A stretch of 64,000 bases of DNA from Candidatus Omnitrophota bacterium. GTDB taxonomy: Bacteria; Omnitrophota; Gorgyraeia; Pluralincolimonadales; Pluralincolimonadaceae. The notes below the pieces were generated by a model. The model was not told the origin of the DNA. It saw only the letters and a list, made by a program, of their open reading frames with translations, and searched no databases. This document shows positions 8,389 through 27,874 of this stretch, piece by piece. The position numbers and the translations under genes are program-made. Position 1 is the first letter of the stretch. Each line of letters begins with the position of its first letter. The DNA lies in the NCBI GenBank assembly GCA_041651455.1, contig JBAZJG010000002.1:49431-113430 (forward strand). The letters are read 5' to 3'.

Positions 8389-8400
8389 GCGCCTTACCAG

Positions 8401-11309: not shown

Positions 11310-11338
11310 TTGACGGAGCGTGCCTTAAGTGGTATATA
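11310..11338 (+). promoter_or_regulatory. Sigma70-type promoter: -35 TTGACG (11310-11315), 17-nt spacer, extended -10 TGgTATATA (11330-11338)
   Basis: Read from the sequence. The ATG at 11345 is 7 nt after the -10 box, implying a leaderless mRNA. Confidence 0.5.
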
Positions 11339-11344
11339 AAAGGT

Positions 11345-13810
11345 ATGCTCTGGTGCATACAGGTATATAACAGGAACAGGCGCGGCGCGGCCCTGATAAT
11401 GACGGTGGGGGTGCTCAGCATGCTCGTGCTCATAGGCGTCTCTTTCGCCGCCACCACGCAGGCCGTATACAGGCAGGCAAGGAATTACTCAAACTCCGTG
11501 AAGGCAAGATATCTCGCCGAAGCGGGTATAGCGAGGGCGGTGGCCGAGCTCCGCTGCGGAGCGGAAGGGGCGGTATCGGACGCGGTAGATACGCAGGCGG
11601 AGGGCTGGTATGCGGGATATTCCGCCGCTCTCGGCGGCGGCAGGTACCAGGTAAGCGGCACGGATTGCGCGGCGAGAATATATATAAACGATACCAACCC
11701 TAACCTCAGCGCCATGCTTGAAAACCTCACGGCGGCCCTCATATCCATGGGCGAGCCGCTTTCAGCCGGGGACGGCGCCGCGATAGTGTCGAACCGGCCG
11801 GCCGAAGGTTATATGAGCGAGCAGGAGGTGGAAGAGCCGTTCAGGCCCTACGTCACAGTCAGGGCGTTCCGGGATACGGCCGTCTATTCGAACGCTTCGC
11901 CTTTTCCGGCCGTACCGAGGGCGCCCGTAAACGTAAATACCGCTTCCAAGCCGGTGCTAAAGGCCGTCCTGTCCGGGATAGAAGCGACGCATACGTGCCC
12001 AAGGTGCGGAGGCGACGGGACGATATTCGCCGCAAGCGCGTGCCCGGATTGCGGAGGGACCGGCGGCCTCAGGATCACCCCCGCTGAAGCGGACGCGCTC
12101 GCGGACTACATAATCGCGAACCGCCCGTATTCGACATGGGGCCAATTCTACGGTTCGATAAAATCCTGCGCAAGTATGGGCGCGCAGGACGCGGACCTTG
12201 TGATGGCGAACGCGAACCCGAACGCGGGATTCGCGCCGGGGGCGCGCAATTACGGCTGGGCGTGCGGCGCGGGGCGTATCGGCAAGTATATAGACCCGGC
12301 GGACAACGGCCGCGGCCTTACAACCCACACGACGGAATTCTGTTTCAATTCGGGGGGATATTACGATATCGTCTCGACCGGGACGATAGAAGTGGGCGCG
12401 GGGACGGCCGCGGCTTCCAGGAGCATAAGGTCTGTCGTGAAGATATTCGATATATGGAGGCAGACCGCGCAGTCGGAATTCCAGTCGGGCGCCATGAGCG
12501 GCCTGCAGAGCTATCCGGAGCCGATAGGCGCGGGCATAGCGCCGGCGGCGTTCGACGGGCAGTTGATGCTCGCGACTAACGAGGACTCGTCCACCGCCAA
12601 TACGCTGCTGAGGGCAAGTTTCAACGACGGGCTCGACCTCGATTCGGCGGCGAATGCGAATATCGTCAGGGATCCCGCGAGCACCTGCTCCGTAGGGAGC
12701 GTCACTGATACGTCGGATCCGGGCAGTTTACTTCCGGACGGCGTATTCGTGAACAAAAAGTCCAACGATTACATATCGTTCATGGAGAGCTGGAGCGGCA
12801 CCTATAACATGGCGAAGGCGGACATGGGGACGCTTTCGCTCTGGGTCAAAGTCGTATCCGGCGGAGAGGTGTATTCGGGTATGAGCTTCTCCGGCTACGA
12901 GATAGATACGTACGGCAACGGCCACACGGACGGCGGCCCGCCGTGGGATTTTTCGCTGTTCGAGATACACCCGAGCGGCTTCATTCCCGGCTCTCCGTTC
13001 GGCGACTGGAACTGGTGGAGGCCCGGCTACGCGAACAGGACGGAGGTATGGTTCTACGAGCAGTGGGACGCGGCCCTGCCCGAGAGGCCTATCGGATTTA
13101 TCGGGTTCCAGGAGGTCGGAAGCGGCATCGGCGGAGGCAACGTCTCGCAGATAATGAGCACAGGCCGCGCGAGGAAGAACTGGGCGCCGGGCACGTGGCA
13201 CCATGTCGTCTTCACGTATGAATTGAGCAATCCAGCCGACCCGAACTGCATGACGGGGACGAAGAAGATATACATAGACGGCGCTGAGCCCCCGCATTAC
13301 GCCTATGATACGATATACCACCGGCTCAACGGGGACGTCCGCGACATTACCCTCGGCACGTCGGACATCAACAACAGCCATTCAGACGGCACCTATATAA
13401 TAGACGAGTTCAGGTCGGAGCACGCCTGCGCGACGGCCGCGCAGGTCATGGCGGAATTCGCTTCCGGCAGGTATTACGATAACAGCGACGCGGAATTCAC
13501 GTCGTCTGCGTTCAACGCGGGCACGGCGCGCATAGGCACGGTATCGTGGACGGAATACATGCCCGCGAGCGTCGCCGGAGGCGATATACAATTCGATATA
13601 GACAACGGCTCGGGGTGGCTCGGCGGGTATGCCGCGCGCAACAACCCCGCGGGATCCCCCGTTGGCGCGATGACCGCCGGGACGAACCTTATAAGGTACA
13701 AGGCGTATTTCGTGAATTCGGGCACGGGGCTTACCGATACCCCGGTCCTCGATGACGTGACCGTTACCTATTTAAAAAGGGCGGAAATACTGTACTCAAG
13801 GGAGGAATGA
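11345..13810 (+). CDS. GspK/PilX-like minor pseudopilin with a CxxC-x13-CxxC zinc-ribbon insert and a large concanavalin/LamG-like C-terminal region (821 aa)
   Basis: The N-terminus RRGAALIMTVGVLSMLVLIGVSFAA...ARYLAEAGIARAV resembles GspK. A helix-hairpin-helix PVNVNTASKPVLKAVLSGI as in GspK. Zinc-ribbon insert HTCPRCGGDG...CPDCGGTG. Confidence 0.6.
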   Translation: MLWCIQVYNRNRRGAALIMTVGVLSMLVLIGVSFAATTQAVYRQARNYSNSVKARYLAEAGIARAVAELRCGAEGAVSDAVDTQAEGWYAGYSAALGGGRYQVSGTDCAARIYINDTNPNLSAMLENLTAALISMGEPLSAGDGAAIVSNRPAEGYMSEQEVEEPFRPYVTVRAFRDTAVYSNASPFPAVPRAPVNVNTASKPVLKAVLSGIEATHTCPRCGGDGTIFAASACPDCGGTGGLRITPAEADALADYIIANRPYSTWGQFYGSIKSCASMGAQDADLVMANANPNAGFAPGARNYGWACGAGRIGKYIDPADNGRGLTTHTTEFCFNSGGYYDIVSTGTIEVGAGTAAASRSIRSVVKIFDIWRQTAQSEFQSGAMSGLQSYPEPIGAGIAPAAFDGQLMLATNEDSSTANTLLRASFNDGLDLDSAANANIVRDPASTCSVGSVTDTSDPGSLLPDGVFVNKKSNDYISFMESWSGTYNMAKADMGTLSLWVKVVSGGEVYSGMSFSGYEIDTYGNGHTDGGPPWDFSLFEIHPSGFIPGSPFGDWNWWRPGYANRTEVWFYEQWDAALPERPIGFIGFQEVGSGIGGGNVSQIMSTGRARKNWAPGTWHHVVFTYELSNPADPNCMTGTKKIYIDGAEPPHYAYDTIYHRLNGDVRDITLGTSDINNSHSDGTYIIDEFRSEHACATAAQVMAEFASGRYYDNSDAEFTSSAFNAGTARIGTVSWTEYMPASVAGGDIQFDIDNGSGWLGGYAARNNPAGSPVGAMTAGTNLIRYKAYFVNSGTGLTDTPVLDDVTVTYLKRAEILYSREE

Positions 13811-13813: not shown

Positions 13814-14659
13814 ATGAGATACTGGATGATATCGATTGCGCTGGTGCTTATGGCCGTGAATACGGTATCGGCGGAGACGGGATCGGCTGTCGAGGGCTAT
13901 AGCCCCGCGGTTCCTCTGCCTTCAAAAATACCCGCGGAAGCCGGGATAAAGATATCGAAAGCCGCGATAGATTTTTCCGGCGGCGAATACCGCGTAAAAG
14001 TCAGCGGCAGCACCGGCCTTCCCGACAAGGCGAGGATATACGTCTTCCTGAAGAAGGGGGAGTTCCCGCTGGACTGCAAGATCGCGCGCGCGGAAGGAGG
14101 CAGGTTCTCGGCGGAGCTCGGGCCATTCCGGGTAAAACTTCCGATAGGCATATATATCGTGGAGGCGTCGCTGACGGCCGCGGAAACATCCGGCGCGAAA
14201 GACGTATATCGTCTCGTGGCCGGTAACCCCGAAGACGCGGTAAAAGAGGAAGAGTCCGGCAGGGCCGCGGTCTCGGCAAGCCTGGCTTCGGTCAGCGCGC
14301 TGTATGATGAACTCGAGCAGAAGCGCGCGCAATACAAGGACAGTTTCGACCCGGCTGAATGGAGGAGATGGTCGGAAGGGTGGGCTGTCCGCCTCAGGAA
14401 CGAACAGCAAACGGTCGATAACAACATAAAGCCGCTGTTGGCCGGCGATTATTCGGGCCCCGGACAGGCGCTTTCGCAGCTGATAAGGGACCTCGACCAG
14501 CTCGGAAGGGTGTATTCGTCCGAACTGGACGGTGGCGGCATCAAGGATGCCTACCCGTATGCCTTCAGGGACCCCGCGCAGCTCAGGGCGGTCATCAACG
14601 AAAGCCTTAAAAATAGCAAAAAAGTCGTATTGACAAACTGTGGCCTAAATGGTATATGA
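13814..14659 (+). CDS. Hypothetical secreted protein (281 aa), likely co-transcribed with the GspK-like gene
   Basis: Signal peptide MRYWMISIALVLMAVNTVSA; starts 4 nt after the previous stop. Confidence 0.45.
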   Translation: MRYWMISIALVLMAVNTVSAETGSAVEGYSPAVPLPSKIPAEAGIKISKAAIDFSGGEYRVKVSGSTGLPDKARIYVFLKKGEFPLDCKIARAEGGRFSAELGPFRVKLPIGIYIVEASLTAAETSGAKDVYRLVAGNPEDAVKEEESGRAAVSASLASVSALYDELEQKRAQYKDSFDPAEWRRWSEGWAVRLRNEQQTVDNNIKPLLAGDYSGPGQALSQLIRDLDQLGRVYSSELDGGGIKDAYPYAFRDPAQLRAVINESLKNSKKVVLTNCGLNGI

Positions 14660-14710: not shown

Positions 14711-15466
14711 GTGAAAAGATTGAAATATCTGATCGCATTGTTGGCATGCATGTTCGTATTCGCGGCTTCTCCCGAGGCCCACGCAGTCCTGAATTGGGCG
14801 GGAGAGGACACCGACGCGCCTTCTAACGCGCTGAACTGGAGCTACGGGTTCTCGCAGGGAGGCGACACGGTAGAGCTGGTCACGACGCCGGACGGCAACT
14901 GCGCGCCTTCGGTAACCACCGAAGCGCATTCGGGCGCCGAATCGGTCAAGTTCCACTGGACCCACACGAAGGACACGGTCAACTGGGGAACAAGGACAGC
15001 CCTGCAGGTTGGAAGCGACGGCAACGGCGGAGACAGCCTCGGCACCTCGATGATGTTCCACGATATCTCAACGGCGAGCAACCTGACCTTCTGGGTCAAG
15101 GGCGCGGTTGGCGGGGAACAGTTCAGGGTCGCCCTGAACAGCGGCTGGGAAGGATCGGCGTATCCGACCGACCAGACGAACCAGCTGCTCGTGAGCGGAG
15201 TGACAAGCTCATGGCAGCAGGTAGTGATGCCCCTGTCGGGATTCACGTACGATTTCCAGTACTCGGAGAATCCCGGCCCGATCGACCTGGCCCATTTGAC
15301 GGGCGTCAGGTTTGTCATAGAGTCGGGCGAGCCGACCGGCGAAGGGACGGTGTATATCGATGACATCTCGTTCGATACGCAGGCGGTCCCGGAACCCGCG
15401 AGCCTTCTTTTACTCGGCTCCGGCTTGAGCGGCATGTTGGTCTTTGTAAAGAAGCGTAAAGCATAA
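14711..15466 (+). CDS. Secreted CBM-like beta-sandwich domain protein with a C-terminal PEP-CTERM sorting signal
   Basis: Signal peptide. FWVKGAVGGEQFRVAL...IDDISF domain paralogous to those in the downstream glycoside hydrolase genes. C-terminus VPEPASLLLLGSGLSGMLVFVKKRKA. An alternative TTG start at 14720 has better Shine-Dalgarno spacing. Confidence 0.7.
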   Translation: MKRLKYLIALLACMFVFAASPEAHAVLNWAGEDTDAPSNALNWSYGFSQGGDTVELVTTPDGNCAPSVTTEAHSGAESVKFHWTHTKDTVNWGTRTALQVGSDGNGGDSLGTSMMFHDISTASNLTFWVKGAVGGEQFRVALNSGWEGSAYPTDQTNQLLVSGVTSSWQQVVMPLSGFTYDFQYSENPGPIDLAHLTGVRFVIESGEPTGEGTVYIDDISFDTQAVPEPASLLLLGSGLSGMLVFVKKRKA

Positions 15467-15521
15467 GCTCTCGTCCCCCAACGAGAAGGATCCGTCCGTC
15501 TCCCGAATCCTTTACGGCAGC

Positions 15522-15567
15522 TTGACAAATTCCCGCTATGTGGTATACATAAGGTATGGGTGGTATA
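15522..15567 (+). promoter_or_regulatory. Promoter for the regulator gene: -35 TTGACA (15522-15527), 16-nt spacer, TGgTATACA (15541-15549); second TGGTATATA box at 15561
   Basis: Read from the sequence. Confidence 0.45.
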
Positions 15568-15609
15568 TACCAATCCTAACCGAATATTGTATCTAAGAGG
15601 AGGCGGGAG

Positions 15610-16719
15610 ATGGACGGTAAGTTTGACAAGAAGAGGCCGATGCTCTTTTACCAGCAGTTCGCGGACATGATCAGGGACCAGATCAACAGGAACCGGTATA
15701 AACCGGGCGAATACATCCCTTCCGAAAGGCAGCTGAGCAAGGATTTCAAGCTCAACAGGATGACAGTCAGGAAGGGCATCGCGATGCTGGTGGAGGAAGG
15801 CCTGCTGCAGCCGTTCAGGGGGCGCGGGACTTTCGTTACGGGTTATCCCCAGCCCGGGAAGAAGACCCGGTCCAGGGATATCGGCTACGTCTTCATAAAG
15901 GATTTCAATTTTCCGCTTTCGAAGAATCCTTATTACACGGAGATCCTTGAAGGGGCGGAAGCCGAAGCTTCAAAACTGGATTATAAGTTCTTTCTAATGT
16001 CAGTAGATTACGATGAGAGCAAGCTCAGGGAGCTCGCGTCGCGCATAATCAGCGATAAGATAGGCGGGGCGGTCTTCGTAGGAAGGCTCGACGAGAAGGT
16101 CGAGGGGATAATAACCTCCCTCGCGAAACGCAAGATACCCGTCGTCGTCATAGACAGGTACGTGCCCTATAACGGCGTCAGCGCGGTGCTGACCGACAAC
16201 GCGAAGGGCGCGTATGACGCCGTGCAATACCTGGCTTCACTCGGCCACAGGGAAATAGGGTTCATAACGGGGCCGAAGTCGAACCAGGCGGTGCAGGAGA
16301 GGATCGGCGGATTCGAGAAAGCCGCCGGGGAACTCAAGCTCAAGGTGAAGGCGGAGCACACGGCCGAGAGCGACCTGCATATACACGGCGGATACCTCGC
16401 GATGAAGAAGATACTCGGGGCGCGCAAGTTCCCCACGGCGGTCTTCGCGATAAACGACGAGGCGGCGATAGGCGCGATGCGCGCGATACACGAGAAGGGG
16501 TTGAAAATCCCGAAGGACATATCGCTCGTAGGGTTCGACGACATCGAATGGGCCTCGCACACTATGCCCGGGCTTACTACCATCAAGATCTACAAAAAAG
16601 AGATCGGCGCCGCTGCCGTGAAGAAACTCACGGAGCAGATCGAGGATAAGGCCGCTCTACCGGTCAAGAACGTTATGCCGGTAAAGCTTGTCCTCAGGGA
16701 GAGCTGCGCCAATGCCTAA
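15610..16719 (+). CDS. Transcriptional regulator: GntR-type HTH N-terminus fused to a LacI/periplasmic-binding-protein-type sugar-binding domain
   Basis: HTH YIPSERQLSKDFKLNRMTVRKGIAMLVEEGLL. The C-terminal part has a LacI-like fold (VVVIDRY...AVFAINDEAAIGAMRAIHEKGLKIPKDISLVGFDD). Confidence 0.8.
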   Translation: MDGKFDKKRPMLFYQQFADMIRDQINRNRYKPGEYIPSERQLSKDFKLNRMTVRKGIAMLVEEGLLQPFRGRGTFVTGYPQPGKKTRSRDIGYVFIKDFNFPLSKNPYYTEILEGAEAEASKLDYKFFLMSVDYDESKLRELASRIISDKIGGAVFVGRLDEKVEGIITSLAKRKIPVVVIDRYVPYNGVSAVLTDNAKGAYDAVQYLASLGHREIGFITGPKSNQAVQERIGGFEKAAGELKLKVKAEHTAESDLHIHGGYLAMKKILGARKFPTAVFAINDEAAIGAMRAIHEKGLKIPKDISLVGFDDIEWASHTMPGLTTIKIYKKEIGAAAVKKLTEQIEDKAALPVKNVMPVKLVLRESCANA

Positions 16720-16737
16720 CATCTTGAGGAGATATAA

Positions 16738-19095
16738 ATGGGTAGTAAGCTGGATAAGTACGGTTATTTCGATAACGATAAGAAAGAATTCGTCATCACG
16801 AGGCCCGACACGCCTCTTCCGTGGATCAATTACCTCGGCTGCGAGCAGTATTGCGGCCTCATGTCGAACACCGCGGGCGGCTACAGCTTCTGGATAGACC
16901 CGCTCGAGAACAGGATACTGCGTTACAGGTATAATAATATCCCTTCCGACAGGGGCGGCAGGTACATCTACCTGAGGGACAACAAGTCCCGCGATTTCTG
17001 GTCCGCCTCGTGGCAGCCAGTCCTGAAAAGCCCCGATAAATACAAATACGAGTGCCGCCACGGCCTCGGGTATACCGTCATATCATCGGAATATTCCGGC
17101 ATAAAGACGAAGACATCATATTTCGTCCCGCTCGGGGAGAATCTCGAGATATGGATGATGGAGGTCGAGAACGCCTCGAAGAAAGACAGAGACCTTGACG
17201 TCATTTCTTTCGTGGAATTCTGCCTGCCGAACGCGCTCGAGGACATGACTAACTTCCAGGCGAACCTGAACACCGGCGAGACCGACTACGAGGACGGCAC
17301 CGTCTACAACATCAGCAAACACCGCGTTACGAAGGCGCATTTCTCGTTCTTTACCGTCGCCAACCAAAAGGTCAAGAGCTTCGACAGCAAACGCGACGAC
17401 TTCCTCGGGCCTTACGCCGACCTCAGCGCGCCGCGCGCCGTCGTGGAAGGCAAGGGCAAGAACGGCATCAGCTGCGGCTGGTCGCCGGTCGGGTCGCACA
17501 ATATAGGCCTTAAACTGAAGAAGGGCGAGTCGAAGACGGTGATATTCATCCTCGGCATCGCGCATTCGAGGAAAGAGGTCGACGGCTACAGGAAAAAATA
17601 TTCCACCAGGGCCAAAGTCCTCGACGCATTGAAAAACCTCAACGGGCACTGGGAGGAGAACCTCGACAAATTCAAGGTCGAGACGCCGGACGGCGACCTG
17701 GACCTGATGGCTAACATCTGGAACCAGTACCAGTGCCGCTCGACGTTCAACTGGTCGCGCTCGGCCTCGTACTATGAATCCGGCATCGGCCGCGGAATGG
17801 GTTTCCGCGATTCGAACCAGGACACGCTCGGTTTCGTGCATATGGTCCCGGAGAAGGTGAAGCAGAGGATAATCGACCTCGCCTCAACGCAGTTCGAGGA
17901 GGGCGACGCGCACCACCAGTATTCCCCGCTCACGAAGAAGGGCAGGGAGCGCGGATATTCCGACGACCACCTCTGGCTGATATATTCAGTCGCTGAATAT
18001 ATCAAGGAGACGGGAGATACCGGTTTTCTCTCCGAGACGATCCCTTACAATAATGATAAAAAAGGCACGCTGCTCGAACATCTCGAGAAGGCGATAGATT
18101 ATTCGGTCAAGAACACCGGGCCGCACGGCCTGCCGCTTTCCGGGTTCGCCGACTGGAACGACTGCCTTAACCTGCGCGGGCCTAACAACAAGGGCGAGTC
18201 GGTCCTGGTCGCGCAGATGCTCGTGCTGGCCGCGAAAGAGATGGCCGGCCTGCTGAAATTCGTGAAGGAGCCGAACAAGGCGGCGCGTTTCGACGAGATA
18301 GCGGAGCGCATGACGGAGAGGATAAACGAGGTTGCCTGGGACGGCGCGTGGTATGTCAGGGCTTACGACGACAACTCGAACGTGGTCGGCTCAAAAAAGA
18401 ACAAGGAAGGCAGGATATTCCTTGAGTCGCAGGGATGGGCCGTCATGTCGGGCGTGGCGCCGCAGGACAGGGCGATAAAGACGCTCGATTCGGTCGAAGA
18501 GCACCTTGCCACCGAGCACGGCGTCATCCTGCAGCAGCCGGCTTACAGCGATTACCATAAGAGTTTGGGCGACGTATCGTCATACCCGCCGGGGCTCAAG
18601 GAGAACGCCGGCATATTTTGCCATCCGAACCCGTGGGTCATGATAGCCGAATGCATCGCCGGGCGCGGCGACAGGGCGCTCTGGTATTACAAGGCGATAC
18701 TGCCGCCGTCTAAGGACCCGGATGTCCGCAGGGTAGAGCCGTATATCTATTGCCAGATGGTAGCCGGAAGGGACCATCCCGATTTCGGCGAGGGTAAGAA
18801 CTCGTGGCTTACCGGGACGTCGGCGTGGAATTTTGTCGCGGTCTCGAAGTATATAATCGGGATAAGGCCGGATTACGACGGACTTGTCGTAGACCCCTGC
18901 ATACCGGAAAAATGGGAGGGGTTCAGGGCGGCGAGGAAGTTCCGCAACGCCGTCTACGACATCTCGGTGGATAATCCCGGGCATGTCAGCAAGGGCGTAT
19001 CTTCGGTAAAGGTGGACGGGAAGTTCATAGAGGGGAACAAACTGCCCGTATTCAACGACGGCAAGAAGCATTCCGTCGAGATAACGATGGGCTAA
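16738..19095 (+). CDS. Cellobiose/cellodextrin phosphorylase (GH94)
   Basis: Near-collinear similarity to characterised cellobiose phosphorylases (FDNDKKEFVITRPDTPLPWINYLG, NTAGGYSF, IWNQYQC, SRSASYYESGIGRGMGFRDSNQD, GPHGLPL...ADWNDCLNL, NSWLTGTSAWNF, RPDYDGLVVDP). Confidence 0.9.
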   Translation: MGSKLDKYGYFDNDKKEFVITRPDTPLPWINYLGCEQYCGLMSNTAGGYSFWIDPLENRILRYRYNNIPSDRGGRYIYLRDNKSRDFWSASWQPVLKSPDKYKYECRHGLGYTVISSEYSGIKTKTSYFVPLGENLEIWMMEVENASKKDRDLDVISFVEFCLPNALEDMTNFQANLNTGETDYEDGTVYNISKHRVTKAHFSFFTVANQKVKSFDSKRDDFLGPYADLSAPRAVVEGKGKNGISCGWSPVGSHNIGLKLKKGESKTVIFILGIAHSRKEVDGYRKKYSTRAKVLDALKNLNGHWEENLDKFKVETPDGDLDLMANIWNQYQCRSTFNWSRSASYYESGIGRGMGFRDSNQDTLGFVHMVPEKVKQRIIDLASTQFEEGDAHHQYSPLTKKGRERGYSDDHLWLIYSVAEYIKETGDTGFLSETIPYNNDKKGTLLEHLEKAIDYSVKNTGPHGLPLSGFADWNDCLNLRGPNNKGESVLVAQMLVLAAKEMAGLLKFVKEPNKAARFDEIAERMTERINEVAWDGAWYVRAYDDNSNVVGSKKNKEGRIFLESQGWAVMSGVAPQDRAIKTLDSVEEHLATEHGVILQQPAYSDYHKSLGDVSSYPPGLKENAGIFCHPNPWVMIAECIAGRGDRALWYYKAILPPSKDPDVRRVEPYIYCQMVAGRDHPDFGEGKNSWLTGTSAWNFVAVSKYIIGIRPDYDGLVVDPCIPEKWEGFRAARKFRNAVYDISVDNPGHVSKGVSSVKVDGKFIEGNKLPVFNDGKKHSVEITMG

Positions 19096-19098
19096 CGC

Positions 19099-20223
19099 AT
19101 GAAGGAGACACAGATGAAGAAAGCGATGATCCTGGCAATGATACTGGCGGTACCGCGGTTGTGCATGGCCGCCGAATACGAGGCCGTATTCAAGGAGAAC
19201 ATGGGCAAGTACACATACGCGTACCCGTCCACGAGCACGATCGAGATAGCCGAGCAGGGCGCGAAGGACGGAAGGGCCTGCCTCATGCTTGTCCTCGACC
19301 ATAAGGAATACTCGGGCGGCGCTTTCGCGTTCAGCGACCCGATCGACGTTTCTTCGATAAAGGATACCGGCTCGCTCGAGTTCTGGATAAAGGGCGGCAA
19401 CGGCGGGGAGAGGCTTGAGGTCGCGCTCGTGAGCGAGCAGGCCGACGGCAAGAAGGCCGAGAGCGTGCTAAGCTTAAATTCCGTGAGCAGTGTCGACAAC
19501 AGGTGGAAGAAGGTAGAGATACCGCTGAAGCTCTTCCCGAAGAACGGCATCTACTGGGACGCGGATAAGGGCAAGGAGCTCCCGCTTGCGTTCGACTGGA
19601 AGAACGTGACCGAATTCAAGGTCCGGACGAGACCGACACAGGGCCAGGATGACATAAAGCTCTATTTCGACGACATCGTCTTCACGAAAGACGCGAAGCC
19701 GGGCGTCAACGCGCTTGTCGTGTTCGACGGGGCGTTCCCATCCTATACGTACGCGTATCCGGAGAGCGGAAGCAGGATAACCGTATCGGCCGGTGACGTA
19801 TTCGAGGGCAAGCCCTCGGCGAAGATATCGCTTAACGCGAAGGACTATTCGGGCGCCGCGTTCGCTTTCGGACCCGTTGACCTCAGCGGAATGCGCGAAG
19901 CGGGAGTCCTCGAGTTCATGATGAAGAGCGGCGCGGGCGGCGAGAAGGTGGAGATATGCCTCGTGCAGGCGGCAGAGCCGAAAGTCGAGACCGGCGTGAA
20001 CTTAAGCGGCATAAAACCGCTCACTACCGAATGGCAGAAATACGAGATACCGCTGAGCATGTTCCAGGACAGGGGCAAGTACTGGGACGAGGCCTCCAAG
20101 AAAGAGGTCGGCGCCGACGTGAAGAACTGGGACAAGATCGGCGAGATCAAGTTCAAGATAAGGAAGGACGAGAACAAAGAATGCTCCCTATACATAACGG
20201 ACGCAAAGTTCAGATTGCAGTAA
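19099..20223 (+). CDS. Secreted protein with two tandem CBM-like beta-sandwich domains
   Basis: Signal peptide; two copies of the LEFWIKGGNGGE...W.KVEIPL...YFDDIVF module. Confidence 0.6.
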   Translation: MKETQMKKAMILAMILAVPRLCMAAEYEAVFKENMGKYTYAYPSTSTIEIAEQGAKDGRACLMLVLDHKEYSGGAFAFSDPIDVSSIKDTGSLEFWIKGGNGGERLEVALVSEQADGKKAESVLSLNSVSSVDNRWKKVEIPLKLFPKNGIYWDADKGKELPLAFDWKNVTEFKVRTRPTQGQDDIKLYFDDIVFTKDAKPGVNALVVFDGAFPSYTYAYPESGSRITVSAGDVFEGKPSAKISLNAKDYSGAAFAFGPVDLSGMREAGVLEFMMKSGAGGEKVEICLVQAAEPKVETGVNLSGIKPLTTEWQKYEIPLSMFQDRGKYWDEASKKEVGADVKNWDKIGEIKFKIRKDENKECSLYITDAKFRLQ

Positions 20224-22478
20224 TAGCAGCGGCGGTATTGCTCTGTTCGTGCGCTAAGCAACCCGAGGTTGAATTCAAAGTGCGGGTTTTCGACGGTGAT
20301 ATGGCCGGCTGCCGCGATCATTGGGGCGACTCCTGGATAGGAAGCGGAAGCGGAAGCCGCGTCGACCGGGCCGACGACAAGATAAAACTGGCCGACCTTG
20401 GAAAAGAAGGGCCTGTCCCTGAGGGGCTTGCGCTCGATTTTTCCGGGGAGAACGTTAAGGGCGGCTGGTGGTCCGCTTGTCTGGCCCGGCCAATGTGGCA
20501 GGTGATGTCGCTCGATAATTACAGGGACAAGGGATACCTCGAGATCTGCGTGAAGGGCGCCTCCGGAGGGGAGGAGTTCATCATAGGGCTTGCCGACAAG
20601 AGCAAGCTTAAGAGGGAGGCGATGCTGCCTTCCTCCAGGTTCTTCGCGGTCACTACGCAATGGCAGCGCGTAAGGATACCCCTGTCGGAATTTGCCGCGG
20701 TAAAGCAAGCCCTCGATTTCGACAGGATATCGCACATCATAATCAGGAACGGGAACAAGCCGGGGAAATTCGCCTTTTACATTAAAGATGCGGCTTTCCG
20801 TTCGGAGCTCGTCGAGAAGTCCTACCCGCTCATCAAGGTGGACCAGGCGGGATACGCGCCGGCGGAAAAGAAGGTCGCCAAGGTATCCGGTATCGGGATA
20901 AAGGGCTACGGCGGCAGCAAATTCCGTTTGGTCGACGAGGATACGGGCAAGGAGGTCTTCTCCGGCAGGTTAAAGTACGTCTCGGGGCGCGATAGAGCGA
21001 CGGGCGACGCGGTTTTCGACGCGGATTTTACGGCGTTCGACAGGCCCGGGAGGTACAGGATAAGCGCAGGGAGCGCGGAGCTCAAGAGCCCCGTCTTTTG
21101 CATATCCGGTTCGGCATATGACACCGTGCTGCGCGATTCGCTGAGGATGTATTTTTACCAGAGGTGCGGCACGGCCCTTGAGGCCGGATGCGCCGGCAAA
21201 TGGACGCACGCCTCGTGCCATAACGACGACGCGTACCTGCTTTCCGACGAGACGAAAAAGATCGAGGCGGCGGGCGGCTGGCACGACGCGGGTGATTACG
21301 GGAAATATGTGGTCAACGGCGGCATAGCCGCGGGGACGCTGCTGGCGATATACGAGCTCCGTCCGGAGAACTTTTCCGACGGCCAGCTCGGGATACCGGA
21401 GAGCGGGAACTCCGTCCCCGATATCCTCGACGAGGCAAGATGGGAGATCGAGTGGTTCCTGAAGATGCAGAGGGAAGACGGCGCGGCCTGCCATAAGCTG
21501 GCCGGGGAATATGTCCCCGTCGACAGGTCGCCGGACCGGGACCAGGTAAAAAGGTTCATCATGGACATATCGACCCCTGCCACTGCGAACCTGGCCGCTG
21601 TCGCCGCTATAGCCTCGCGGACCTACGGCAAGCATGACCCGGTTTTTTCGAAGAGATGCCTGGATGCGGCCGAAAGGGCGTGGGCGTACCTGGAGTCCCA
21701 CCCTTCGAATTATCCGCCGAGGGGCTATTCCGATCCTGTTTTGGATAAGGGCGAAATTGACGGAGGCGATTACGGCGACGACCCGCAGGGAAAATGGACG
21801 CAGGGCGACAGGGACGAGAGGTTCTGGGCCGCCTGCGAGCTCTTCCGCGCGACGGGAAAAGACAGGTACCATGATTACATAAAAGCGAATTACGGGATAT
21901 TCAAGGCCGGCCACGCGATGAACTGGCAGCAGGTGCAGAACCTGGGCCTGTATTCATATTGCATGTCCGCGTCCGCCGATGCCTCGCTGAAGAAGGAGAT
22001 CATGAGGTCCCTCGGCAAATACGGCAAGGGCATATTGAAGGCCTCCCGCGCCAACGCTTACGGCAACGCGCTGCGCGGTTACGAGTATTACTGGGGCTCG
22101 AATACGGTAGCGCTGAATTACGGCGTCGACCTGATATACCTGTACGAGATGACCGGCGACCGCAGGTACAGGGACGCCGCGCTCGACCAGCTGCACTATA
22201 TACTCGGCAGGAACGTCTTCGGGCTGTCGATGGTAAGCGGCATCGGAGAGAAAAGTATAGAAAAATATTATCACACATGGTTTAATAATAGCGATTACGA
22301 CACATTGCCCCCGGGATTCATGGTCGGGGGGCCGAATGCCGATAATTTCAAGGTATCGCGGTATCCGGGGCGCTGCTACAAGAATGTCGGCTCCGATTTC
22401 ACCGTCGACGAGATAGCGGTAAATTACAATGCCCCGCTGGTCTTCGTATCGGGTTATTTCAAGGAGGATAAGAGATGA
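20181..22478 (+). CDS. GH9 endoglucanase (lipoprotein-like signal, N-terminal CBM-like domain, CelD_N Ig-like domain, GH9 catalytic domain)
   Basis: GH9 signatures GGWHDAGDYGKY and YYWGSN. The ATG at 20181 has a lipobox-like VLLCSC. The track's start at 19956 reads through the previous gene in another frame, and the real gene overlaps the upstream gene by 43 nt. Confidence 0.85.
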   Translation: MLPIHNGRKVQIAVIAAAVLLCSCAKQPEVEFKVRVFDGDMAGCRDHWGDSWIGSGSGSRVDRADDKIKLADLGKEGPVPEGLALDFSGENVKGGWWSACLARPMWQVMSLDNYRDKGYLEICVKGASGGEEFIIGLADKSKLKREAMLPSSRFFAVTTQWQRVRIPLSEFAAVKQALDFDRISHIIIRNGNKPGKFAFYIKDAAFRSELVEKSYPLIKVDQAGYAPAEKKVAKVSGIGIKGYGGSKFRLVDEDTGKEVFSGRLKYVSGRDRATGDAVFDADFTAFDRPGRYRISAGSAELKSPVFCISGSAYDTVLRDSLRMYFYQRCGTALEAGCAGKWTHASCHNDDAYLLSDETKKIEAAGGWHDAGDYGKYVVNGGIAAGTLLAIYELRPENFSDGQLGIPESGNSVPDILDEARWEIEWFLKMQREDGAACHKLAGEYVPVDRSPDRDQVKRFIMDISTPATANLAAVAAIASRTYGKHDPVFSKRCLDAAERAWAYLESHPSNYPPRGYSDPVLDKGEIDGGDYGDDPQGKWTQGDRDERFWAACELFRATGKDRYHDYIKANYGIFKAGHAMNWQQVQNLGLYSYCMSASADASLKKEIMRSLGKYGKGILKASRANAYGNALRGYEYYWGSNTVALNYGVDLIYLYEMTGDRRYRDAALDQLHYILGRNVFGLSMVSGIGEKSIEKYYHTWFNNSDYDTLPPGFMVGGPNADNFKVSRYPGRCYKNVGSDFTVDEIAVNYNAPLVFVSGYFKEDKR

Positions 22479-23071
22479 AAAAGGTCTTTTTGGCGGCCCT
22501 GATGCTGCTGCCGGCATCGGCCCTGTGCGCGGCGGTAGTTTACGGGATCTTCTCCGAGGAGATAGAGAAGGAAGGGACATATCATTATTCCTACCCGACG
22601 GACGGCACGAGCGAGATACGGACGACGAACATAGAGAAACATTCGGGGAATTATTCGATGAAGGTCACGCTTAACCCTTCCGGGTTTTCGGGCGCGGCTA
22701 TAGGTAATTACCCGCCGATGGACCTCGCGAAGTGCCGTGAAGCGGGCGCGCTGGAATTCTGGATAAAGGGCGAGAACGGCGGCGAAAAATGCGAGATACT
22801 GCTTCTCGACGACTCGAACAACGACGGCAACAAGACGGAAGCGGGAGTGGTCATAACGCCGAAGTATGTGACGATAACAAAAGATTGGCAGAAGGTCAGT
22901 ATCCCGCTGAAGGCGTTCCCGAACGACGGGCAGTACTGGGACGGCGGGAAGAACGTCAAGAATGCCGTCAATTGGAGCGAGATCGTGGAGTTCAAGGTCG
23001 CGAGCCGCCCCTATGACAAGAACGCCGGGTTCACGGTCTATATAGACGACGTGAACATAGTGATGCCATGA
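22475..23071 (+). CDS. Secreted single-domain CBM-like protein
   Basis: Signal peptide; LEFWIKGENGGEKCEILL...WQKVSIPL...YIDDVNI module. Confidence 0.6.
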   Translation: MKKVFLAALMLLPASALCAAVVYGIFSEEIEKEGTYHYSYPTDGTSEIRTTNIEKHSGNYSMKVTLNPSGFSGAAIGNYPPMDLAKCREAGALEFWIKGENGGEKCEILLLDDSNNDGNKTEAGVVITPKYVTITKDWQKVSIPLKAFPNDGQYWDGGKNVKNAVNWSEIVEFKVASRPYDKNAGFTVYIDDVNIVMP

Positions 23072-25950
23072 TAAAAAATATAAGATCTTTCCTCGCGATG
23101 GCCGTATGCGGCGCCTTCATGCTGCCGAACTCCGGGAACTGGTACACGAAGGACGATTCGCCGGACAAGGGCGCCTCCGTGATAAGCTTCAGGATCGACG
23201 AGAAGGCGGACGCAACAGGCGGCGACGGCTCGATAGCATTCGAATATTCCCTCGGGAAGGGCTTCCAGTGGCCGTATGTCCAGTTATTGTGCCCGCTTTC
23301 GCAGGATGGTGCCGCGGGCACCAAGGACCTCAGCGCGTATTCCGGCGTATCGCTCTGGATCAAGACCGAGGGGAAGACGCAGGTGAGGCTGGTAATATTC
23401 ACCGCTGAGGACGGCGTCACCGATATAAACAACAGCGGCACCTACAGGCACAACGAAGTATCAATAAAGACATCCGACAGGTTCGTCCAGTACAAGATAC
23501 CTTTCGAGCAGTTCAAGACCCCGCAGTGGTGGTTGAGCCAGCATGCCGGTGCGAAGAAACAGCCCGACTGGAGCAAATCGATAGAGTTCGCGGTAATGGA
23601 GGACGACAGCCTCTCCGCCGGCGCGGGCGAAAAGGGATGGATAGACGGGATAACCTTTTACAGGGGCCCGCTCGAGATAAGGGCCTCGTCGCCCGAGGAC
23701 AGGGAATCCGGGGTGAAAGCGGACGCGCCGGTCAAGATATCGTTCAATTTTCCCGTGACGACCGAAGAACTCCAAAAAAATTTCCGGCTCATAAAAGCGG
23801 ACCAGGGCGGCAAGCCCGTCGAGTGCGCGATAAACTTATCCGCTGACGGGCGGGAAGCGGTGTTTACTCCCGTGAAACCGCTCGATACCAAGAGCCGTTA
23901 TCTCTATAAGATATACAAGAGACTCGTGAACTTCACGACGGAATACGGCATCGGGAATATCTACGGCCGCGTGACCGGCGAGGACGGAAAGCCCGTCGCC
24001 GACGCGTCGGTAAGGACATATCCCGGCGATAAGAGGACGAGGACCGACAAGGACGGCAGGTACTATTTCGAGGGAGTGAACCTCGACAGGATATGCCTCT
24101 ACTGCGTGAAGGACGGCTATTATACGGGATTCGGCATGTTGCCGCTCGTGCCGAAGGAAGATTTCTACGTCGATTTCAGGCTTTCGGAAACCCCGAGGCG
24201 GGACGGGAAAGTCCAGCCGTACCTGTTCGGCGTGAATTTCAACGACTGGGAGACCGAAGGATATCTTCTGCCGGTAAAGGACAAGGTCAAGGCTGCGGGT
24301 TTCACGATAATGAGGTGGGGCGGCATCGGAAAGGACCTTATCGAGGTCGACGAGGCGAAGATAGACGAGTTCATCTCATACGCGAAAGCGGTAAGGGCGG
24401 AACCCGTCGTGCAGGTCAGGCTAATTAAGGGCAGCATCGAAGAGGCGGCCAAGGCGGTCAAATACTGCAATATAGCCAAGCGCTACAAGGTCAAATACTG
24501 GATAATCGGCAACGAGCCCGACTGGTATAACGAGAAGCAGTGGGGGCCTTACGGCGCGGAGGATTACTGCAGGGATTACCGCGCGTATTACAACGCGATG
24601 AAGGCCGTGGACCCGTCGATAAAGATAATGGGCCCCGAACTGACCGCGAAATACTACCTCGCCGCGCATGACAACTGGATAGAGCCGTTCCTCAGGGAAT
24701 GCGGCGATATAATAGATATCATCTCGATACACCTCTACCCGTACAGCGGCAAGCAGCCGCCCCAGCAGACGCTGATGGGCCTCGGCAATTACAGGCGCGT
24801 GATAGACAGCATCAGGCAGAAGACGCAGGAGATCGCCGGGCGCGAGATACCCATTGCGGTCACCGAGTATAACCTGACCTGGGACTGGCTCGCCGAAGGC
24901 GACGGCGCGAACAATTCGTTTTACGCGGGCCTCTACCTTGCCGACTTCCTCGGCGCGATGGCGGAGAAGCAGGTGTTCATCGCGAATTTCTGGGACATCA
25001 TGGAGAAGGGCACGATCGGGTTCCTCGAGCATGAGACGTTCAAGCCGTACCCGACCTATTACACGTTCATGATGTACAGGAATTTCCGCGGCGAGCTCAT
25101 AGATACCGCGACGGACAGGAAAGAGCTGAAGGTCTACGGCGCTAAGGACAAAAGCGGCAATGTGGTATTGATGGTCATCAATAAGAGCGGCAGCAGACAG
25201 GTCGAGGCGGAACTCGCCCCGGCGGCCCTGAAGAAAACGCAGGACAGGTATTTTTCATTCCCGCCGTATTCGCTTACATGCCTGAAGATAAGCTCCGGCG
25301 GCAGGTGCTCCGACGCGTGGCAGTATTCGAAGGAGATGTACGATAAGGACGAAGGCATGCTGTCGGGCAGGAAGCTTGTAAAAAAGACCGTGCTGAAAGA
25401 GCTTGTCCCTGCGGCCGTGCAGTCCGGGCCCGGGGCAGGCAAAGGCCTGATGGATGATTTCGAAAGCAGGGACTTCGTATCGCCGATGGGCGGCGCATGG
25501 ATACCGGAAGACGACTCGGTCAACGGCGGCGATTCGACTTCGAAGATATCGCTCTCCGAAGGCAACGGCAGCGCGTCCGGTCTGAGGTTCGAATACACGC
25601 TCGGCGAGAAGTTCAACAACAGGTATTCCATCTGCGCGGCGGTATTCGACGGTCCGGTGGACATCTCGAAGTACAAGAAGATGGTTTTTTGGGCCAAAGG
25701 GACGGAAAAGGCCTTCAAGATAAAGGTCTGCTCCGCCTCCGTAGGCGATTATGATTACCACGGCACTACCATCACTCCCTCCGAGGGCTGGAAAGAGTAT
25801 TCTATAGCCCTGTCATCCCTCAAACAGGAAGGCTGGGGCAGAAAAACAGGTATTGACCTCACGCAGGTAAACAAGATACAATTTGAGTCAGGCACGAAGA
25901 CCGCCGGTGACGAGGGTTTCATTGTCGTTGACGATATCCGTTTCAAATAA
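23068..25950 (+). CDS. Multidomain glycoside hydrolase, clan GH-A TIM barrel (GH5/30/39/44-like), with an N-terminal CBM-like domain, Ig-like and carboxypeptidase-regulatory-like domains and a C-terminal CBM-like domain
   Basis: MRWGG...WIIGNEPD (acid/base) and IAVTEYN (nucleophile) motifs. GRVTGEDGKPVADASV...DKDGRY CarbopepD_reg-like segment. The exact family cannot be resolved by eye. Confidence 0.65.
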   Translation: MIKNIRSFLAMAVCGAFMLPNSGNWYTKDDSPDKGASVISFRIDEKADATGGDGSIAFEYSLGKGFQWPYVQLLCPLSQDGAAGTKDLSAYSGVSLWIKTEGKTQVRLVIFTAEDGVTDINNSGTYRHNEVSIKTSDRFVQYKIPFEQFKTPQWWLSQHAGAKKQPDWSKSIEFAVMEDDSLSAGAGEKGWIDGITFYRGPLEIRASSPEDRESGVKADAPVKISFNFPVTTEELQKNFRLIKADQGGKPVECAINLSADGREAVFTPVKPLDTKSRYLYKIYKRLVNFTTEYGIGNIYGRVTGEDGKPVADASVRTYPGDKRTRTDKDGRYYFEGVNLDRICLYCVKDGYYTGFGMLPLVPKEDFYVDFRLSETPRRDGKVQPYLFGVNFNDWETEGYLLPVKDKVKAAGFTIMRWGGIGKDLIEVDEAKIDEFISYAKAVRAEPVVQVRLIKGSIEEAAKAVKYCNIAKRYKVKYWIIGNEPDWYNEKQWGPYGAEDYCRDYRAYYNAMKAVDPSIKIMGPELTAKYYLAAHDNWIEPFLRECGDIIDIISIHLYPYSGKQPPQQTLMGLGNYRRVIDSIRQKTQEIAGREIPIAVTEYNLTWDWLAEGDGANNSFYAGLYLADFLGAMAEKQVFIANFWDIMEKGTIGFLEHETFKPYPTYYTFMMYRNFRGELIDTATDRKELKVYGAKDKSGNVVLMVINKSGSRQVEAELAPAALKKTQDRYFSFPPYSLTCLKISSGGRCSDAWQYSKEMYDKDEGMLSGRKLVKKTVLKELVPAAVQSGPGAGKGLMDDFESRDFVSPMGGAWIPEDDSVNGGDSTSKISLSEGNGSASGLRFEYTLGEKFNNRYSICAAVFDGPVDISKYKKMVFWAKGTEKAFKIKVCSASVGDYDYHGTTITPSEGWKEYSIALSSLKQEGWGRKTGIDLTQVNKIQFESGTKTAGDEGFIVVDDIRFK

Positions 25951-25979: not shown

Positions 25980-26522
25980 ATGGGTGAAGAGAGCATAAAT
26001 TTCGATGAGCTGGTCCTTGAGCATAAGGACAAGGTCTTCAATTTGTGCTACCGTTTCCTCGGCAATTACGAGGAAGCCGACGATTGCGCGCAGGAGACCT
26101 TCGTAAAAGTATACCGCTCTTTGAAGGACTTCAGACGGGAGTCGTCCGTCTCGACGTGGATCTACAGGATAGCGGTAAATACCTGCAAGAACAGGGTCGC
26201 GTCGGCGCAGTACCGCCGCAGCAGGAACATGGTCCGGCTCGACGAGCCGAAAGAGACCGACGACGGCGCCAGGCCTGTGGAGATAGGCGACGAGAAGCTC
26301 TCCCCGGCGACGGAGGCCGACAGGAAGGAAAAGGGAGAGCTGATACAGGAAGCGATAGATTCCCTGCCGCGCGACCAGAAGTCGGTGGTCATATTGCGCG
26401 ATATCGAGGGGCTCTCTTATGAGGCAGTCGCCGAAGCGACGGGCCTGAACCTCGGGACCGTGAAGTCGAAGCTGGCGAGAGCCAGGCAGGAATTAAGGGA
26501 AAAACTGAAGGGGCTGGTATAG
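25980..26522 (+). CDS. RNA polymerase sigma-70 factor, ECF subfamily
   Basis: Region 2 (ETFVKVYRSLKDF...WIYRIAVNTCKN) and region 4 (SYEAVAEATGLNLGTVKSKLARAR) motifs. Confidence 0.85.
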   Translation: MGEESINFDELVLEHKDKVFNLCYRFLGNYEEADDCAQETFVKVYRSLKDFRRESSVSTWIYRIAVNTCKNRVASAQYRRSRNMVRLDEPKETDDGARPVEIGDEKLSPATEADRKEKGELIQEAIDSLPRDQKSVVILRDIEGLSYEAVAEATGLNLGTVKSKLARARQELREKLKGLV

Positions 26523-27272
26523 ATGGATAACAAAGACAAGAGGGATATGCTGCCGGAGGACGAATACCTGAAGCGGATGAGTTCCCTGCCGAAGGTAAAG
26601 GCCCCGGATGATTTCCTGCAGAAGGTGCGCGCGCGGATCGAAAAGCGCCCGCTCCGCGAAAGGATAATAGACGCCCTTTTTGTCCCGTTCAGGATAAAGA
26701 TACCGCTCGAGGTAGCGGCCGTGACGGCGATGCTGTTGCTCGTGATGTCCAGCCTCGATGTGGTCAAGCCGTCGAAGCAGCTTGCGTCCGTGCCGAAGTC
26801 GGATGTAGAGACGGCGGTCGTCGGGAAGGCGGACGATTATAAATATCAGGAATATGCGGATAAGGTCGAATCCGGCGCCGCGCCCGCGGAAAAACCTGCG
26901 GCAACAGAAGCCCTTAAAATGAAGAAGGTTGAATTCAAAGAATCCCGGTTGTGCGAGGGGGAGTCCTCCTCTGTGTGCGCGGATTCGGCGGAGCCGGCGC
27001 CCAGATCATCCAAAGGATTTTTCCGCGCGGACGTCATGCCCGCCATAACCGGATATATCAAGTCATCTCAGGGCGCCATTACCCATATAGAGACCGACAA
27101 GAACACCGGCCTGCCGCTGTATATAGACGCCGAGATACCCGCCGCTAACTATGAATCGTTCAAGAAGAAGCTGGAAGACCCCGCCATATCCCGCAATATT
27201 AAGATAGAGCCCATCCTGAAGGAAGCCCCGCAGGGAATCAATATAATCCAAATCCGCATTTTTATGATATAA
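26523..27272 (+). CDS. Putative anti-sigma factor (single TM)
   Basis: Adjacent to and coupled with the ECF sigma gene; short cytoplasmic N-terminus, one TM (PLEVAAVTAMLLLVMSSL), periplasmic C-terminus. Confidence 0.5.
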   Translation: MDNKDKRDMLPEDEYLKRMSSLPKVKAPDDFLQKVRARIEKRPLRERIIDALFVPFRIKIPLEVAAVTAMLLLVMSSLDVVKPSKQLASVPKSDVETAVVGKADDYKYQEYADKVESGAAPAEKPAATEALKMKKVEFKESRLCEGESSSVCADSAEPAPRSSKGFFRADVMPAITGYIKSSQGAITHIETDKNTGLPLYIDAEIPAANYESFKKKLEDPAISRNIKIEPILKEAPQGINIIQIRIFMI

Positions 27273-27292: not shown

Positions 27293-27874
27293 ATGAAAAA
27301 GCTGGCATTCGCGCTTTTAGCGCTGGCGGTATGTTCTTTCGCGTCGGACGCGTTTTCGCAGGAGTTCGAGGCGGATATGGTAAACACCACCCGGGGCGGC
27401 GTTTATAACGCCCATATCAACGTGGGCAAGGACAAGATGCGGATGCAGACCGACGATAATATCGTCATATCGAGGATGGATAAGGGCGTAGCCTGGATGC
27501 TCGTCCCGGCGCAAAAGATATATATGGAAGAGACGATAGACCCGAAGAACATGCAGGTCACTTCCGAGAAGGTCAACGGCGAGGTCAACAGGGAGCGCCT
27601 CGGCGCCGAGACGATAAACGGGGTAAAAGCCGACAAATATAAGGTCACCTATGATGTAAACGGCATGGAAGGCACGATGTACCAGTGGATAGCGCCGTCG
27701 TTGAACATGCCGGTAAGAAGCGAAGCCGGCGACGGGAGCTGGACGGTCGAATATACCAACATCAAAACGGGCCCGCAGGACGCGTCGCTCTTCGAGATCC
27801 CCGCGGGTTACAATAAAATGGATGCGTATAACATGGGCGACCTAATGAAAGGGATGACAAATGAAGAAGAATAA
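27293..27874 (+). CDS. Hypothetical secreted protein (193 aa)
   Basis: Signal peptide MKKLAFALLALAVCSFA; overlaps the GH3 start by 14 nt, so probably in the same transcript. Confidence 0.5.
   Translation: MKKLAFALLALAVCSFASDAFSQEFEADMVNTTRGGVYNAHINVGKDKMRMQTDDNIVISRMDKGVAWMLVPAQKIYMEETIDPKNMQVTSEKVNGEVNRERLGAETINGVKADKYKVTYDVNGMEGTMYQWIAPSLNMPVRSEAGDGSWTVEYTNIKTGPQDASLFEIPAGYNKMDAYNMGDLMKGMTNEEE

Follow-up and report, generated by a model that had tools for sequence, protein, structure and literature searches.

What a carbohydrate-binding module (CBM) joined to a PEP-CTERM sorting signal might be doing beside a set of cellulase genes is the question raised by a 64,000-nucleotide stretch of Candidatus Omnitrophota DNA (contig JBAZJG010000002.1, positions 49,431 to 113,430 of the forward strand; hereafter the window). 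The gene in question encodes a 251-residue protein, P1, and lies in a tightly packed array of co-directional genes on the + strand (about 11.3-32.7 kb of the window), which is predicted to be a conserved locus through which an uncultured Candidatus Omnitrophota bacterium uses β-1,4-glucan (cellulose, cellodextrin, mixed-linkage glucan, or xyloglucan). P1 is probably an exosortase-sorted surface protein that binds glucan and works with CBM-bearing glycoside hydrolases (GH) of family 9 and clan GH-A, with a GH3 enzyme and with a cytoplasmic GH94 enzyme. We infer from the sequences the glucan ligand, the surface location, the cleavage by exosortase, and the roles of two further CBM proteins, P2 and P4. 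The five proteins that carry copies of the module are as follows.

14711..15466, + strand: P1, 251-residue PEP-CTERM carbohydrate-binding protein; signal peptide (residues 1-25, 14711-14785), predicted CBM30/CBM11-like β-sandwich (residues 26-224, 14786-15382), tail (residues 225-251, 15383-15463)
19099..20223, + strand: P2, 374-residue non-catalytic secreted protein; two CBM30-like modules in tandem, P2a and P2b (19171-19698, 19699-20220)
20181..22478, + strand: P3, GH9 endoglucanase; N-terminal CBM30 module P3n (20256-20816), immunoglobulin (Ig)-like CelD_N domain (~20823-21077), GH9 domain (~21117-22448)
22475..23071, + strand: P4, 198-residue secreted non-catalytic protein with one CBM30-like module (22535-23068)
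23068..25950, + strand: P5, 960-residue multidomain enzyme; N-terminal CIA30/CBM11-like module P5n (23128-23682), Big_5 (~23668-23916), CarboxypepD_reg (~23959-24183), clan GH-A (β/α)8 catalytic domain (~24337-25233), C-terminal CIA30-like module P5c (25453-25947)

The sorting signal of P1 is well delimited. Its signal peptide, read directly off the sequence, is MKRLKYLIALLACMFVFAASPEAHA with V as the next residue, and at the other end of the protein residues 225-251 are AVPEPASLLLLGSGLSGMLVFVKKRKA, which divides into VPEP-ASLLLLGSGLSGMLVFV-KKRKA, that is, the PEP motif, a hydrophobic helix, and a basic C-terminal end. The tail passes the models PF07589 (26.1 bits, cutoff 20.7) and TIGR02595 (27.1 bits, cutoff 16), so that the PEP-CTERM signal proposed for one copy of the module by the initial annotation is genuine. 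Among the nine homologues of P1 that were found (P0001-P0009), eight are orthologues at 48-96% identity; VPEP is invariant, with the helix and the basic end retained, in all nine and in ten fetched loci (L001-L010), and the tail is kept in every orthologue down to 48% identity. An exact-sequence look-up of P1 returned no record, and its orthologues are named 'carbohydrate binding domain-containing protein [Candidatus Omnitrophota bacterium]' in NCBI.

The passenger of this signal belongs to a family that had been described as seven paralogous copies in six proteins. The seven copies lie where they had been placed, in five proteins, P1 to P5, and a MAFFT alignment puts all of them in one register and reproduces the earlier consensus, as LEFWxKG..GGE ... 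W(Q/K)xV.IPL..F ... DW ... YIDDIxF over a module of about 170 residues. No eighth copy was found in the six-frame translation of the window with a hidden Markov model (HMM) of all seven. The similarity among the modules is well above chance, and the set is graded, not uniform. In all-versus-all BLASTP, P2a, P2b, and P4 are mutually about 37% identical with E values of 1e-28 to 1e-36 (P2a against P2b, 37% and 1e-32; P4 against both P2 modules, 37-38%); P3n matches these three at about 1e-10, P1 matches P4, P3n, and P2a at about 1e-8, and P5c matches P5n at 1e-7. A leave-out HMM of the four core copies found P1 at 3.9e-13 and the two P5 copies weakly, at 0.021 and 0.88. When orthologues were added, hhalign related the P1 family to the core modules at 99.1% (E 1e-18), and the P5n family at only 36% (E 3.7e-4, in register); the match between the P5n and P1 families was not significant and out of register. 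Judged by these comparisons, P1 is a divergent member of a CBM30-like group of five copies. The idea of one paralogous family thus holds for those five, the P5 pair being much more distant and CIA30/CBM11-like.

As to what the module is, the relevant Pfam cutoffs are 27 bits for both CBM30 (PF21582) and CBM_11, and 24 bits for CIA30 (PF08547). Four copies, namely both P2 modules, the N-terminus of P3, and P4, are above the CBM30 cutoff: P2 scores 79.7 bits over two stretches (CBM_11, 44.6 bits), P4 60.9 bits (CBM_11, 34.6 bits), and P3 71.5 bits, next to 290 bits for GH9 and 60.9 bits for CelD_N. The P1 orthologues P0004-P0008 have precomputed PF21582 matches. Searched against the PDB, the seven-copy profile retrieved the CBM30 of Clostridium thermocellum CelJ (1WMX/2C24, 2.4e-12) and CBM11 (1V0A/2LRO, 2e-7), and the N-terminal module of P3 matched 1WMX at 2.2e-22 with phmmer, with the GWW…W aromatic cluster aligned. 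Because that alignment runs on into the Ig-like domain, P3 shares the CBM30-Ig-GH9 layout with CelJ. The architecture of that enzyme is given as CBM30-GH9, and CBM30 and CBM11 are type-B binders of β-glucan and xyloglucan (PMC10992016).

Structure prediction leads to the same group. The AlphaFold2 model of P1 is a β-sandwich (pLDDT 59, pTM 0.60) whose best Foldseek matches are CBM11 structures (1V0A/6R31; E 9e-9, TMt 0.70-0.74), followed by CBM30 chains (E 2e-7 to 6e-7, TMt 0.60-0.68). The P5n model (pLDDT 70.6, pTM 0.73) likewise matched CBM11 (1.3e-8), then CBM30 (~2e-6 to 5e-6), then CIA30/NDUFAF1. The fold predicted for both proteins is thus not an unrelated one, and Pfam, the PDB profile matches (1WMX/2C24, 1V0A), and Foldseek agree on a CBM-type β-sandwich, as first suggested. 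On this combined footing of sequence and models, the element that recurs through the locus, beside GH9, GH94, GH3, and clan GH-A enzymes, is predicted to be a type-B CBM from the established CBM30/CBM11 group.

The remaining genes of the array are listed below.

11345-13810, + strand: GspK-like minor pseudopilin with a LamG-type domain (NCBIfam T2SS_GspK over residues 13-92; Pfam T2SSK, Laminin_G_3)
13814-14659, + strand: 281-residue secreted protein with no family match, directly upstream of P1
15610..16719, + strand: regulator with a GntR-type helix-turn-helix and a LacI-type sugar-binding domain (Pfam GntR, Peripla_BP_1/3/4)
16738..19095, + strand: GH94 cellobiose/cellodextrin phosphorylase (Pfam Glyco_hydro_94, 534.7 bits; GH94_b-supersand, 271 bits)
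25980-26522, + strand: extracytoplasmic function (ECF) sigma factor (Pfam Sigma70_r2, Sigma70_r4_2)
26523-27272, + strand: putative anti-sigma membrane protein (weak DUF2275 match)
27293-27874, + strand: DUF4412 protein (Pfam DUF4412)
27861-30383, + strand: secreted GH3 β-glucosidase with a PA14 insert (Pfam Glyco_hydro_3, Glyco_hydro_3_C, PA14, Fn3-like)

The GH94 enzyme is read as cytoplasmic because it is devoid of a signal peptide. The GH9 part of P3 has its best structural matches in 3X17, 5U2O, and 6DHT, and the N-terminus of P3 (…AAVLLCSCAKQ) possibly resembles a lipoprotein signal. The putative P3 start at 20181, taken from the initial annotation, overlaps the end of P2 by 43 nucleotides (20181-20223), and the longest open reading frame (ORF) begins at 19956; the overlap is kept in L007, and the gene call in L004 begins after the P2 stop. 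A Bacteroidota-type polysaccharide utilization locus was considered and rejected on the lack of SusC/D, Pfam scans of the ORFs between 9.8 and 34.7 kb having revealed no SusC/SusD or TonB-dependent receptor, and a cellulosome was rejected on the lack of dockerin or cohesin, for which no protein of the locus has a Pfam match. A scan for promoters and terminators between 11 and 30.5 kb gave fewer sites than in shuffled controls and was uninformative.

The locus is conserved as a unit. Matches in genome collections at 87-98% identity come from metagenome-assembled genomes (MAGs) titled Candidatus Omnitrophota or "uncultured Planctomycetia," and the gene order P1, regulator, (GH94), P2, GH9, (GH94), P4, P5 is found in three divergence tiers, at about 90%, about 50% (L001-L003), and about 48% (L004-L006) identity. 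Synteny of the whole locus extends over three or more lineages of Candidatus Omnitrophota MAGs. GH94 precedes P2 in the window, L001, and L007-L010, and follows GH9 in L004-L006. The regulator is always directly 3' of P1 across L001-L010, and P2 is conserved in all related loci. That the module stands at the same positions in each tier indicates that the copies are old paralogues, each with its own line of orthologues. Small single-module proteins vary from 0 to 2 per locus: in L001-L003 P4 is replaced by a 214-residue protein (L001, 14421-15065) with no Pfam or module match, and L004-L005 have two single-module CBM30 proteins (L004, 17973-19216). On the other side of P1, the genes at 11345-13810 and 13814-14659 are conserved directly upstream in L001 (6356-9879) and L007-L010, as determined by tblastn synteny; in L004-L006 a different prepilin-type gene (N_methyl/SBP_bac_10) occupies this place. 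The pseudopilin, which has a Cys-rich CxxCxGxG stretch, and the 281-residue protein could make up an adhesin at a pseudopilus tip that is tied to the glucan locus.

In the favored scheme, P1 would be exported by the Sec machinery and then retained by its PEP-CTERM helix, until an exosortase cuts it at or near VPEP and hands it to the cell surface or the exopolysaccharide layer. The cleft of its β-sandwich would bind single glucan chains and so hold the cell on its substrate, and chain cutting would fall to the CBM30-Ig-GH9 endoglucanase and to the CBM-flanked clan GH-A enzyme P5. P2, with its tandem modules, and P4, with its single one, may bind or pass along the released oligomers, which would be trimmed by the GH3 enzyme, the cellobiose and cellodextrins being phosphorolysed by the cytoplasmic GH94. 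Control of expression would lie with the regulator of GntR/LacI type together with the ECF sigma pair.

Regular exosortase display in Omnitrophota is hinted at from two sides, since P1 is a fixed member of a β-glucan locus and since in one MAG an exosortase-EpsI pair directly precedes CBM30-like and GH26-like PEP-CTERM proteins. That locus, L011 (JGI 3300037067 Ga0378408_0001252, 8333-11838), encodes in order an exosortase (PF09721; TIGR02602, 148 bits, cutoff 105.55), EpsI, and two PEP-CTERM proteins, the first P1-like and the second GH26-like. The P1-like protein (P0009/P0175) is 38% identical to P1 and is found by the window-only module HMM at 1.4e-8; the GH26-like one has a PEP-CTERM motif and then a helix, has no basic cluster, and ends in …LFSPLFLLD. 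Exosortase with EpsI was found in L011, L015, and L017, the arrangement of a 286-290-residue protein, a TPR protein, an exosortase, and EpsI recurs in other lineages, and many exosortase clusters are named Candidatus Omnitrophota. Exosortase-EpsI operons are common in the phylum, and a P1 orthologue and the L011 exosortase co-occur in the metagenome assembly ERZ27247363; for P1's own genome the system is presumed. The broader notion that Omnitrophota regularly display glycan-binding and glycan-cleaving modules on their surface through exosortase and PEP-CTERM is tentative, and we hold it to be rather doubtful.

Several observations weigh against the proposed scheme. P1 itself is below both Pfam cutoffs (CBM_11, 22.8 bits; CBM30, 22.0 bits), and its model, like that of P5n, is of only moderate quality and built on a shallow alignment; the alignment behind the P5n model consists mostly of its own paralogues, the homologue search having given a single protein. 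The GWW…W cluster of CelJ is kept solely in the GH9-borne copy, and the ligand specificity of CelJ is for this reason not simply transferable to the others: in the alignment, the corresponding stretch of P2 and P4 reads YSG(G/A)AFAF or FSGAAIGNY, and that of P1 FHWTHT…NW. The locus has no evident sugar transporter. The 64-kb window holds no second PEP-CTERM gene and, after inspection of all its multi-pass membrane ORFs, no exosortase, the candidates being a Trp/Tyr permease, a MatE protein, a cation efflux protein, BioY, and a xanthine/uracil-type permease; on the fetched contigs, none lies within 10 kb of the P1 orthologues. Finally, no MAG was found that has both P1 and an exosortase: the MAGs in which exosortases were located are DAOVKU01, CAZQVU01, JBAZFB01, JAQTMX01, and JAQUPL01, and none of the P1-bearing MAGs (DJVC01, CAZYUB01, JAQUSA01, CAZAEH01, JBAYMW01, JBAZFY01, JBAZJS01) is among them.

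In one alternative, P1 would be a matrix or floc protein, like the PEP-CTERM protein PepA of floc-forming bacteria, that is delivered to the cell's own exopolysaccharide layer and binds that polymer, its position next to the glucan locus being incidental or serving biofilm formation on particles. PEP-CTERM proteins are classically linked to exopolysaccharide production (PMC1569441; PMC9850573). Moreover, among the CBM30-like copies none diverges as far as P1, which lacks the CelJ aromatic cluster, and its gene lies upstream of the regulator, beside the pseudopilin-like genes and not among the enzymes. The best NCBIfam match of the whole protein is floc_PepA, although at 30.5 bits it is far below the cutoff of 80 and stems mostly from the shared tail, for which reason assignment to that family was rejected. 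Against this idea, P1 is directly followed by the same regulator and glucanase genes in all lineages in which it occurs, down to 48% identity, and the hhalign comparison above shows its family to be a clear homologue of the locus's CBM30-like modules. We regard a matrix role as unlikely.

It has to be asked next whether the PEP-CTERM tail is processed at all. Were it an unprocessed membrane anchor, P1 would be a cellodextrin-binding protein tethered to the inner membrane, facing the periplasm and feeding a transporter. This would agree with the absence of an exosortase from the window and from the P1-bearing contigs examined, and with the presence of one PEP-CTERM gene in 64 kb, since such genes are usually multiple, with a median of eight PEP-CTERM proteins per genome (Haft et al. 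2006, PMC1569441). P2 and P4, which have ordinary signal peptides only, would fit as periplasmic CBM proteins. However, PEP-CTERM genes are normally dispersed over the genome, as are the 21 of Akkermansia (PMC3048395), and the phylum does have exosortase-EpsI operons with adjacent P1-like cargo. V-P-E-P is also invariant across the orthologues while the sequence of the helix drifts, which points to recognition by an enzyme and not to hydrophobicity alone. A permanently tethered P1 accordingly appears quite improbable.

The remaining alternative concerns chiefly P5, whose C-terminal module matches Pfam CIA30 (47.4 bits, residues 811-948), not a CBM family, and whose N-terminal module matched no Pfam model, both missing the CBM30 cutoff. 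P5n is tied to the CIA30/CBM11-like group by BLAST to P5c, by its predicted fold, and by the NCBI name of an orthologous N-terminal fragment, 'CIA30 family protein'. That such modules are structural or protein-protein domains of the galactose-binding-like superfold would suit these matches, the weak relation of P5n to the core modules, and the complex I assembly factor NDUFAF1 among the fold matches, but it is very improbable given that CBM11 and CBM30 are the best fold matches, that the modules flank a glycoside hydrolase, and that Cel51A of Fibrobacter succinogenes has an analogous layout, CBM30-CBM30-CBM11-GH51 (PMC6851124). Besides CIA30, Big_5, and CarboxypepD_reg, P5 has a marginal GH39 match (29.9 bits, cutoff 26); its catalytic part has weak PDB matches only, of which GH51 is the best (8.5e-13), with GH79, GH39, and GH44 also present, and it may be a member of a poorly described GH family.

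How uncommon is an exosortase-sorted CBM? With the tail of P1 removed, a profile of its domain was searched against 1.84 billion representative proteins and gave 1579 relatives at E<=1e-3, most of which are large multi-copy secreted proteins. Among the best 150 of these, rough regular-expression counts gave two PEP-CTERM ends (P1's own cluster and P0009), about 11 tails like those of type IX secretion (T9SS), and about three dockerin-like tails; with two of 150, the combination of CBM and PEP-CTERM must be called rare. No study was found in the literature on PEP-CTERM or exosortase in Omnitrophota, or on a CBM, GH, or other carbohydrate-active enzyme tagged with PEP-CTERM, the only match being a cellulase cluster of Microbulbifer that includes a PEP-CTERM protein, in a one-line mention of a genome announcement (PMC7409859). 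Set against this, PEP-CTERM was originally discovered in Verrucomicrobium spinosum, of the Planctomycetes-Verrucomicrobia-Chlamydiae (PVC) superphylum (PMC1569441), and Akkermansia has EpsH along with its PEP-CTERM proteins (PMC3048395), precedents that make the combination unsurprising for this part of the tree. The initial annotation had called it unusual; the database count and the near-absent literature bear this out, and the Verrucomicrobium origin, the Omnitrophota exosortase operons with such cargo, and the Microbulbifer cluster temper it. Every component is from a described family and is sensibly named in NCBI, and the pairing of domains is mildly uncommon.

Among characterized proteins, CelJ (Cel9D-Cel44A; 1WMX, 1WZX, 2C24) is in the same Pfam family as four of the copies, with the type-B β-jelly-roll in common, and shares its domain order with P3. 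In contrast with CelJ, the locus lacks a dockerin, a cellulosome, and the GH44/CBM44 half, and the module is also found in stand-alone secreted proteins and in a PEP-CTERM protein. The CBM11 of C. thermocellum Lic26A-Cel5E (1V0A, 6R31) is the best structural match of the P1 and P5n models, but sequence identity is only 14-18%, with P1 below the CBM_11 cutoff.

At the level of the locus, the closest resemblance is to the non-cellulosomal system of F. succinogenes, also a Gram-negative strategy, in which Cel51A is accompanied by a stand-alone secreted CBM30 protein, FSU_2007 (PMC3079729, PMC6851124). Both have several CBM30/CBM11 copies, some in tandem, a non-catalytic secreted CBM30 protein, and a CBM-bearing clan GH-A enzyme. 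They differ in anchoring, which relies on basic terminal domains and T9SS signals in Fibrobacter; here the tail of one CBM is of the PEP-CTERM type, and T9SS tails are absent. Bacteroidota polysaccharide utilization loci encode surface glycan-binding proteins that are likewise non-catalytic, placed beside enzymes and a sensor or regulator, and presumed to be surface-displayed, but the present locus has no SusC/SusD or TonB receptor, P1 carries PEP-CTERM in place of a lipid-modified N-terminus, and the fold family is another. With regard to sorting by exosortase (EpsH, XrtA) as first described (Haft et al. 2006, PMC1569441), Omnitrophota have XrtA-like exosortases with EpsI; typical PEP-CTERM cargo is of low complexity and has no recognizable domain, unlike P1, whose cargo is a recognizable CBM in a catabolic locus. 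If Omnitrophota did use exosortase display regularly, it would be the counterpart of sortase-anchored cellulosomes and T9SS-anchored enzymes.

Beyond the array, the window encodes at 37880-42094 (+ strand) an AAA_22 ATPase, a small membrane protein, a secretin (Secretin, Secretin_N, STN), and a TPR/coiled-coil protein, which together look like an outer-membrane channel related to type II secretion or pili. This cluster confirms a diderm envelope, and the enzymes may be exported through it. Ahead of it, at 36868-37452 (+ strand), is a transposase of the IS200-like Y1 type (Pfam Y1_Tnp, 56 bits). Farther downstream, a giant ORF of 3547 residues (45001-55644, + strand) combines a hydrophobic N-terminal segment with four Laminin_G_3 (concanavalin-like) domains, and is flanked on the + strand by a histidine kinase (42095-43282) and a membrane GGDEF diguanylate cyclase (56249-58132); it is in keeping with the giant secreted proteins that have been described in Omnitrophota (10.1101/2023.11.21.568195; 10.64898/2026.06.07.730766). 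The first 4000 nucleotides of the window (1-4000) have a G+C content of 0.34-0.43, against 0.51-0.60 elsewhere, and small ORFs that match no family or only DUFs (DUF6941; weakly DUF6789/DUF1761); they may stem from foreign DNA or from a join made in assembly.

Beyond the points that follow, the gain is incremental, since all components are in described families and the proteins were already sensibly named. At least one lineage has a complete-looking route for cellulose and cellodextrins, with GH9, clan GH-A, GH3, and GH94 enzymes, and this matters for inferences on carbon cycling because a good part of the recent work on the phylum deals with giant proteins interpreted as predatory or cell-wall-targeting effectors (10.1101/2023.11.21.568195; 10.64898/2026.06.07.730766). 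The fate and function of PEP-CTERM cargo are experimentally ill-defined, and most cargo has no recognizable domain. P1, whose passenger is a recognizable CBM fixed in a conserved β-glucan locus, is for that reason a PEP-CTERM cargo with a testable ligand. If regular exosortase display in the phylum is correct, P1 would be one of few such cargoes whose ligand can be predicted and assayed, and would provide a handle on where exosortase cargo goes and what anchors it.

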